Assembly (NCBI GenBank): GCA_965213685.1
Contig: CBDBZY010000018.1
Location: 480,001 to 544,000 of the forward strand
Length of the DNA stretch: 64,000 bases
Direction: 5' to 3'
DNA from: a bacterium
GTDB taxonomy: Bacteria > UBA8248
In this document: one piece after another, positions 5,900-6,023 of the stretch
Layout of the letters: each line of letters starts with the position of its first letter
How positions within the stretch are numbered: the stretch's first letter is position 1
Made by a program: the position numbers and the translations under genes
The notes under the pieces: generated by a model
Seen by the model: only the letters and a program-made list of their open reading frames with translations
The model's database searches: none
Told to the model about the DNA's origin: nothing

Positions 5900-6023
5900 G
5901 CCGGACTCCAATTTGTGGGAGTGGTCCCGCCCAACTCCGGAGTTAGCCACGGGTCGGAAGGTTAAAGGGACCGAAACCTGTGGTTAAACTATGATGGATT
6001 TGGGTACTTCCCTGATGACCGGC
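5900..6023 (+). ncRNA. Candidate non-circularly permuted hammerhead ribozyme, copy A
   Basis: GTC 5953-5955, GAAA 5973-5976, CTGATGA 6012-6018. Stem I 5956-5960/6007-6011, stem II 5923-5928/5967-5972, stem III 5943-5953/5977-5987, outer helix 5900-5904/6019-6023, hairpin 5905-5909/5918-5922, helix 5930-5938/5996-6004. Helices covary with copy B. Confidence 0.8.

Follow-up and report, generated by a model that had tools for sequence, protein, structure and literature searches.

The locus and its source DNA

The window analysed here is a stretch of 64,000 nucleotides (C18:480001-544000, that is, positions 480,001 to 544,000 of contig CBDBZY010000018.1 in assembly GCA_965213685.1), and it carries on its forward strand two copies of a structured element: copy A, of about 124 nt, at 5900-6023, and copy B, with the same layout, at 31450-31571. 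Copy A lies in a repeat unit of 553 bp (5530-6082, forward strand) bordered by (CA)n tracts at 5261-5529 and 6083-6169, and copy B in a unit of 638 bp (31055-31692, forward strand) with a (CA)n array of about 5 kb on either side. These (CA)n-type arrays (25578-37245) switch to (TG)n at about position 36000 and create spurious ORFs of around 1800 aa, open in all six frames. Other features of the window are a cluster of seven tRNA-like genes (1990-16781), composed of four tRNA-Ala(AGC) genes and the odd calls Asp-ATC, Pyl-CTA and Thr-GGT, which may be pseudogenes or tRNA-derived repeats; two adjacent forward-strand ORFs with RVT_1 matches, about 10 kb from copy B (41029-43165), the first with a weak, sub-threshold endonuclease match, which together look like a LINE-type retrotransposon; and an 850-aa reverse-strand ORF without a Pfam match (52542-55094).

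The assembly is a chimera, made of contigs of about 65% GC and of contigs of 42-54% GC in which (CA)n microsatellites abound; the contig that holds the window has 525 (CA)n tracts in 813 kb. The (CA)n-rich contigs of 42-54% GC (C2, C4, C7, C16, C18, C41, C51, C64 and others) amount to more than 4 Mb in all, those of about 65% GC are bacterial, and the 71 contigs (C1-C71) total 7.97 Mb, compared to 2-4.6 Mb for related bacterial genomes. The tRNA-Ala(AGC) genes, the LINE-type reverse transcriptase and the (CA)n arrays of about 5 kb are features that we take to be marks of eukaryotic DNA. A covariance-model search with stricter filters, run over 41 further genomes of the bacterial family, did not find the ribozyme RNA in any of them, and two of the 20 sequencing runs that contain part of the window DNA are labelled 'sponge metagenome'. 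Based on the chimeric GC and (CA)n content, the eukaryote-type features of the window, the result in the bacterial family and the labels of these runs, the window DNA is read as eukaryotic contamination of a bacterial assembly and the element as not bacterial; its eukaryotic host is possibly a sponge.

Anatomy of the two copies

Read from 5' to 3', the predicted chain runs through the first strand of a terminal helix (P0), a hairpin (H1), the 5' strands of stem II, of an extra helix (PX) and of stem III, the GUC triplet, the 5' strand of stem I and a linker, and it continues with the 3' strand of stem II, GAAA, the 3' strands of stem III, PX and stem I, CUGAUGA and the second strand of P0. The hammerhead consensus used for the comparison is that of the legend to Fig. 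1A of PMC10085705, as given in excerpts of that paper, and positions follow the usual hammerhead numbering.

All the elements of copy A are on the forward strand. P0 pairs gccgg (5900-5904) with ccggc (6019-6023), the latter strand directly following A9. H1 (actcc, 5905-5909, with ggagt, 5918-5922, and a loop of 8 nt) abuts both P0 and stem II, and stem II joins ggtccc (5923-5928) to gggacc (5967-5972), G10.1 being position 5923 and C11.1 position 5972, so that its 5' strand lies upstream of the cleavage block. PX (cccaactcc, 5930-5938, with ggatttggg, 5996-6004) has one C.U mismatch. Stem III (5943-5954 with 5976-5987) leads into the GUC triplet (G16.2, U16.1 and C17; 5953-5955), with cleavage predicted 3' of C5955, and stem I pairs ggaag (5956-5960) with cttcc (6007-6011). 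The linker from stem I to stem II reads GUUAAA (5961-5966); GAAA (G12, A13, A14 and A15.1; 5973-5976) follows the 3' strand of stem II; the strand joining stem III to PX (5988-5995) includes a conserved GAU; and CUGAUGA (C3 to A9) occupies 6012-6018.

In copy B, also on the forward strand, the corresponding helices are P0 (31450-31454 with 31567-31571), H1 (31455-31459 with 31469-31473), stem II (31474-31479 with 31517-31522), PX (31481-31487 with 31546-31552), stem III (31497-31504 with 31526-31533) and stem I (31506-31510 with 31555-31559), while GUC is found at 31503-31505 (C17 being 31505, with cleavage predicted 3' of C31505), GAAA at 31523-31526 and CUGAUGA at 31560-31566.

The initial annotation had described these two loci as carrying every hammerhead core residue in register, with helices that differ in sequence and keep their pairing, and with a conserved ttaaa linker from stem I to stem II. 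Re-reading the sequence bore this out at the coordinates then given: the core residues C3 U4 G5 A6 N7 G8 A9, G12 A13 A14, the A15.1-U16.1 pair and H17 are in register with the helices in both copies, the linker is present in both, and all the helix differences listed are correct (for instance, gccgg/ccggc in copy A versus tctgg/ccaga in copy B). The two copies show 76% identity (mean column identity over the aligned stretch including flanks), and their helix differences are compensatory. A 25-nt pattern common to both copies has two occurrences in the window, where 100 shuffles give an expectation of 0.00. Plain minimum free energy folding, a method that cannot display the pseudoknotted stems I and II, recovers P0, H1, PX and stem III, with Z-scores of only -1.9 and -2.2.

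A family of homologs

A BLAST search located 20 places in the assembly that contains the window, and a covariance model (R1; 150 of 907 candidates scored) also yielded 20. They are made up of an A type, a B type (four places) and one degenerate third lineage. In a second assembly, at least 15 places were detected with the covariance model (150 of 2445 candidates scored), including a new lineage with the linker AUUAAU. A loose pattern scan of two collections gave at least 230 stretches, and nhmmer kept 19 of them as homologs among the matches listed, namely 17 metagenome stretches and two places of the second assembly; a pattern scan over viral_contigs gave no match. Eight lineages (A-H) can be told apart, with 62-85% identity between them over the ribozyme, and the flanks of different lineages align at microsatellites only. 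Copy A is 97-99% identical to seven other places, and the ribozyme stretch of copy B is identical to two others. In one A-type copy, an insertion of about 560 bp splits the ribozyme between the 3' strands of stem III and PX (reverse strand of the same contig, G000:C18:623798-624626; loci L282 and L285).

The models of Rfam 15 did not recognize this family: over the whole window at gathering thresholds no ribozyme family was reported, and over 5700-6200, at E values up to 10, there was no ribozyme family and no hammerhead model. A search of six related loci at E values up to 0.1 returned only microsatellite-driven, miRNA-like matches, and therefore no second ribozyme of either polarity.

Covariation of the helices

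The pairing scheme was examined in three sets of sequences. The MAFFT alignment A2 has 30 rows, which represent 12 of the 20 places of the window's assembly and 18 of the 19 outside homologs; it leaves out near-identical array copies, two identical B copies, both halves of the split copy and locus L033, which is cut by a contig end. In A2, 84.5% of the cells of the six helices are paired, compared to 33-52% with slid partners, and 116 cells show double changes, against 49.6 +/- 6.9 in shuffles (0 of 500 shuffles reach the observed value). The model-based alignment A3 contains 56 matches (47 of them distinct) and covers all 20 places of the window's assembly, all 15 of the second assembly and 17 metagenome loci. 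Its 47 distinct rows are paired in 84.8% of cells versus 35-50% with slid partners, and have 164 double-change cells versus 72.4 +/- 6.6 in shuffles (again 0 of 500). By helix, the paired cells of A3 amount to 81.6% in P0, 93.2% in H1, 93.2% in stem II, 67.7% in PX, 90.7% in stem III and 84.5% in stem I. Stems I and II are pseudoknotted and lie outside the covariance model, and because of this A3 was not fitted to them.

The third set consists of 10 hand-chosen intact rows, one per lineage or sub-lineage. Here, 92.7% of cells are paired versus 36-56% in slid controls, and 16 pairs are changed on both sides versus 7.5 +/- 1.6 in shuffles (0 of 500), with pairing of 92% in stem I, 100% in stem II, 97.7% in stem III and 100% in H1. 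P0 shows compensatory changes between GC and UA at two pairs, and stem I between GC and AU, also at two; H1 becomes ACUAC/GUAGU in one lineage; stem II has three pairs changed on both sides and stem III, in A3, nine. The distal part of PX reaches only 45-68% in the automatic alignments; neither program aligned its distal half correctly. When the register is fixed and gaps are barred, 6-8 of the 9 positions of PX are paired in the rows whose frame is intact, around a central mismatch of 1-2 nt, and lineage C requires a shift of 1 nt. The rows are related copies, and the shuffle counts overstate their independence and are not probabilities.

Covariation among additional homologs had been set beforehand as a check of the initial annotation, and pairing is indeed well above the slid and shuffled controls. 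In these alignments, all the predicted helices (P0, H1, PX and stems I, II and III, the pseudoknotted pair included) covary.

Conservation of the core and of two unpaired stretches

The core is also kept. Each of its residues is retained in 41-47 of 44-47 distinct rows; G16.2 and U16.1 are found in 44 of 44 and C17 in 43 of 44, and the G10.1-C11.1 and A15.1-U16.1 pairs persist. The complete arrangement GUH...UUAA...CGAAA...CUGAnGA is present in 32 of the 47 distinct rows, the other 15 being mutated, truncated or interrupted copies. The retention of the core in the homologs, together with the covariation of the helices (47 distinct rows; 10 representatives), agrees with the earlier claim that the RNA is under selection.

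Two unpaired stretches are conserved beyond the demands of a hammerhead core. The UUAA of the linker is invariant (45 of 45 rows), and in the strand joining stem III to PX GAU retains its G in 44 of 47 rows, its A in 46 and its U in 45; GAU sits opposite a mostly conserved (U/G)AG. These stretches may constitute a bend-forming or tertiary motif.

Considered as a whole, the sequence evidence makes it likely that both loci code for self-cleaving RNAs of the hammerhead class, about 124 nt long and wired in a new way. A different function is conceivable, in which the RNA would be a conserved structured part of a mobile element, such as a fold recognized by the replication machinery, and would resemble a hammerhead without cleaving. 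The split between A9 and G10.1, which is without precedent, and the conservation of UUAA and GAU, which the core does not need, would fit such a fold. However, another role gives no reason for the joint keeping of CUGAnGA, GAAA and GUH, and the preservation of the G10.1-C11.1 and A15.1-U16.1 pairs also speaks against it, so that we regard a non-cleaving fold as very unlikely.

Wiring and relation to known hammerheads

The initial annotation had pointed out that the order GUC, GAAA, CUGAUGA is not the cyclic order of hammerhead types I, II and III (GUH, CUGAnGA, GAAA), and this is correct; no Rfam hammerhead model matches either. The RNA shares with these types the catalytic core, the three helices, the G10.1-C11.1 and A15.1-U16.1 pairs and the GUC triplet, and it differs from them in that it is not a circular permutation and has pseudoknots instead of a plain three-way junction.

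The earlier statement that rearranged hammerheads had been reported also proved right. Eckert and coworkers described type SGC, represented by the HRIMA-1 motif and its variants (Eckert, Friedrich, Weinberg & Weinberg, NAR 2023, PMC10085705, drawn on here through excerpts of its text). In that work, the hammerhead is divided into three blocks: S (the cleavage site with the 5' strands of stems III and I), G (the 3' strand of stem II, GAAA and the 3' strand of stem III) and C (the 3' strand of stem I, CUGAnGA and the 5' strand of stem II), the latter being defined as uninterrupted. Natural type-SGC ribozymes are active and cleave in vitro; a short linker leads from stem I to stem II, a further stem bridges their other sides, and mutation of this bridging stem abolished cleavage (PMC10085705).

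The RNA studied here has much in common with type SGC as described in these excerpts: the order of the blocks is S, G, C, a short linker joins the 5' strand of stem I to the 3' strand of stem II, an extra helix (here PX) bridges the other strands of both stems, stems I and II are pseudoknotted, and all the core residues are the same. These likenesses raise the question of whether it might be an ordinary member of the published type-SGC family, with nothing new in its wiring, the more so as 176 'type-SGC variants' have alignments in the supplements of PMC10085705 and were compared here by description only. The comparison with the published rearranged hammerheads shows, however, that the wiring departs from type SGC, since the split in block C falls between A9 and G10.1, and stem II has its 5' strand (5923-5928) 84 nt upstream of the CUGAUGA motif. 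The strand that comes after this motif, which reads CCGGC, CCAGA, UCGGA or similar depending on the lineage, is in no lineage able to pair with the strand before GAAA, and the covarying partner of the latter lies upstream, directly after H1. The standard type-SGC reading was ruled out on these grounds. Block C is uninterrupted by definition in type SGC and, according to the excerpted text, insertions between CUGAnGA and the adjoining stems do not exceed 1-2 nt in any known hammerhead; moreover, the 5' products of the tested SGC-1, -2 and -3 ribozymes (15, 15 and 18 nt) leave no room for a stem II strand upstream, whereas a 5' product of 56 nt is predicted here (PMC10085705). Taken together, ordinary membership of type SGC appears highly improbable.

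Relative to type SGC as described there, two strands, namely the 5' strand of stem II and one of the bridging helix, thus lie at the 5' end of the RNA rather than after CUGAnGA; A9 enters the terminal helix P0, and the added hairpin H1 completes a four-way junction. Its linker is of 6 nt with the invariant UUAA, versus typically 3 nt in type SGC. The setting differs as well, with genomic repeats on eukaryotic contigs in this case and, for HRIMA-1, metatranscriptome contigs that also bear hairpin ribozymes (PMC10085705).

As read from the sequence, the wiring is that of the type-SGC permutation, re-opened circularly between A9 and G10.1. The junction formed by P0, H1, stem II and the A9/G12 end of the core has no unpaired nucleotide in 10 of the 12 parsed representatives; of the other two, one fits the junction by eye and one has a degenerate P0. 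The distal ends of stems I and II are joined by the linker and by PX, which, by analogy with the bridging stem of type SGC, may take the place of the usual tertiary (loop-loop) contact between these stems. No description of a helix or of a strand break at A9/G10.1 was found in the literature searched, although the supplementary alignments of PMC10085705 may hold one. The excerpts of PMC3088659, PMC13725137 and PMC10162972 mention only core insertions of 1-2 nt or unspecified 'additional helices'.

Proposed cleavage

The expected reaction is the usual one of hammerheads, with the cut 3' of C17 (C5955 in copy A and C31505 in copy B). The ends that hammerhead chemistry produces are a 2',3'-cyclic phosphate and a 5'-OH. 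In the proposed mechanism, the terminal helix P0 and the hairpin H1 would bridge the break between A9 and G10.1, and stem II would stack on the core across the junction while P0 stacks on H1; as a consequence, G10.1 would stay next to A9 though unlinked to it. The A9/G10.1 position of the core is a metal-binding site. Because a helix is inserted precisely there, and insertions of more than 1-2 nt are unprecedented, the activity could be weak or need a partner.

It might also be considered that the family was once active and that the copies in the window are dead relics in neutral drift, given that 15 of the 47 distinct rows have core mutations, deletions or insertions and that one copy is split by an insertion, but both copies of the window have an intact core and all helices, and the near-identity of copy A to seven places (97-99%) and the identity of the copy B ribozyme to two others point to recent spread, so that we see hardly any room for this explanation.

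The repeat unit and its probable mobile-element setting

The ribozymes are found in repeat units of about 0.55-0.64 kb that have no long ORF. The flanks were counted at 19 places, with the split copy represented by its first half only. A (CA)8 or longer tract, on the strand of the ribozyme, occurs within 800 nt upstream in 15 of the 19 places and downstream in 16 of the 19, while at random (5000 places) the figure is about 6%; (TG)n tracts within the same distance are found in 0 of 19 upstream and 1 of 19 downstream. The same strand-specific (CA)n neighbour is present on several outside contigs. Most copies are single, and in both assemblies there are also arrays of 3-4 copies with a spacing of 0.8-1.3 kb, (CA)n tracts included. 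In the second assembly, three copies lie 1203 and 800 bp apart (G001:C97:104915-107055; loci L254-L256), and they mirror the arrays at G000:C64:792952-796570.

Profile searches gave 107 RVT_1 and six GIY-YIG matches in the window's assembly and two GIY-YIG matches in the second one. None of these lies within about 9 kb of any copy, and for this reason the mobile-element reading comes without an identified partner. The ORFs beside the external copies either have no Pfam match or encode ankyrin proteins. Logan contigs from four runs were compared with positions 5530-6060; in each of the four, the ribozyme part is covered, and some contigs continue into other flanks. They show no joints and no pile-up of ends, although contigs are incapable of showing RNA ends.

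With respect to known elements, the units are similar to the non-LTR retrozymes and the Penelope-like-element hammerheads of animals, as outlined in excerpts of the relevant papers, in being ORF-less repeats, sometimes in tandem, with one ribozyme per unit and one polarity. The elements of these two groups (Cervera & de la Pena 2020; Li et al. 2026; Craig et al. 2021) carry hammerheads of type I, unlike the RNA described here; in contrast with Penelope-like elements, no Penelope-like ORF is found near any copy. The association with microsatellites recalls the Naiad and Chlamys elements (Craig et al. 2021, PMC8557442): according to the excerpted text, Penelope-like clades without canonical hammerheads insert into microsatellites, (CA)n in the case of Chlamys, and some of these elements bear stray 'half cores'. 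This resemblance is no more than a lead, and no link was found between the clades described in these excerpts and the present family. The element is probably non-autonomous and retrozyme-like, its ribozyme trimming unit-length RNAs of the element in a eukaryotic host. Of all our readings, this one is the least secure.

Implications

The wiring described here suggests that a conserved core strand of the hammerhead can be split by an inserted helix. In its most complete form, the proposal is that of a hammerhead topology beyond the six 'block' permutations, with the core strand broken at A9/G10.1 and held by a perfect four-way junction, still cleaving, and serving to process the RNA of a retrozyme-like element that is associated with (CA)n and belongs to sponges or other early animals; we judge that this whole combination has about an even chance of being right. 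Elements reported to be without canonical hammerheads could contain non-canonical ones of this kind, overlooked by standard descriptors.

The search space of Eckert and coworkers for non-circular permutations was built, in the excerpted text, on uninterrupted hammerhead blocks (PMC10085705). If the family cleaves, the assumption of uninterrupted blocks is too narrow, and descriptor-based searches miss whole families of hammerheads and perhaps of other ribozymes. The junction at the A9/G10.1 step would, in turn, allow a direct test of what share of the core backbone is essential to the hammerhead, and it suggests a new attachment point for extra RNA modules. Finally, the family would be a case of a rewired hammerhead that resides within a genomic mobile element of eukaryotic DNA.
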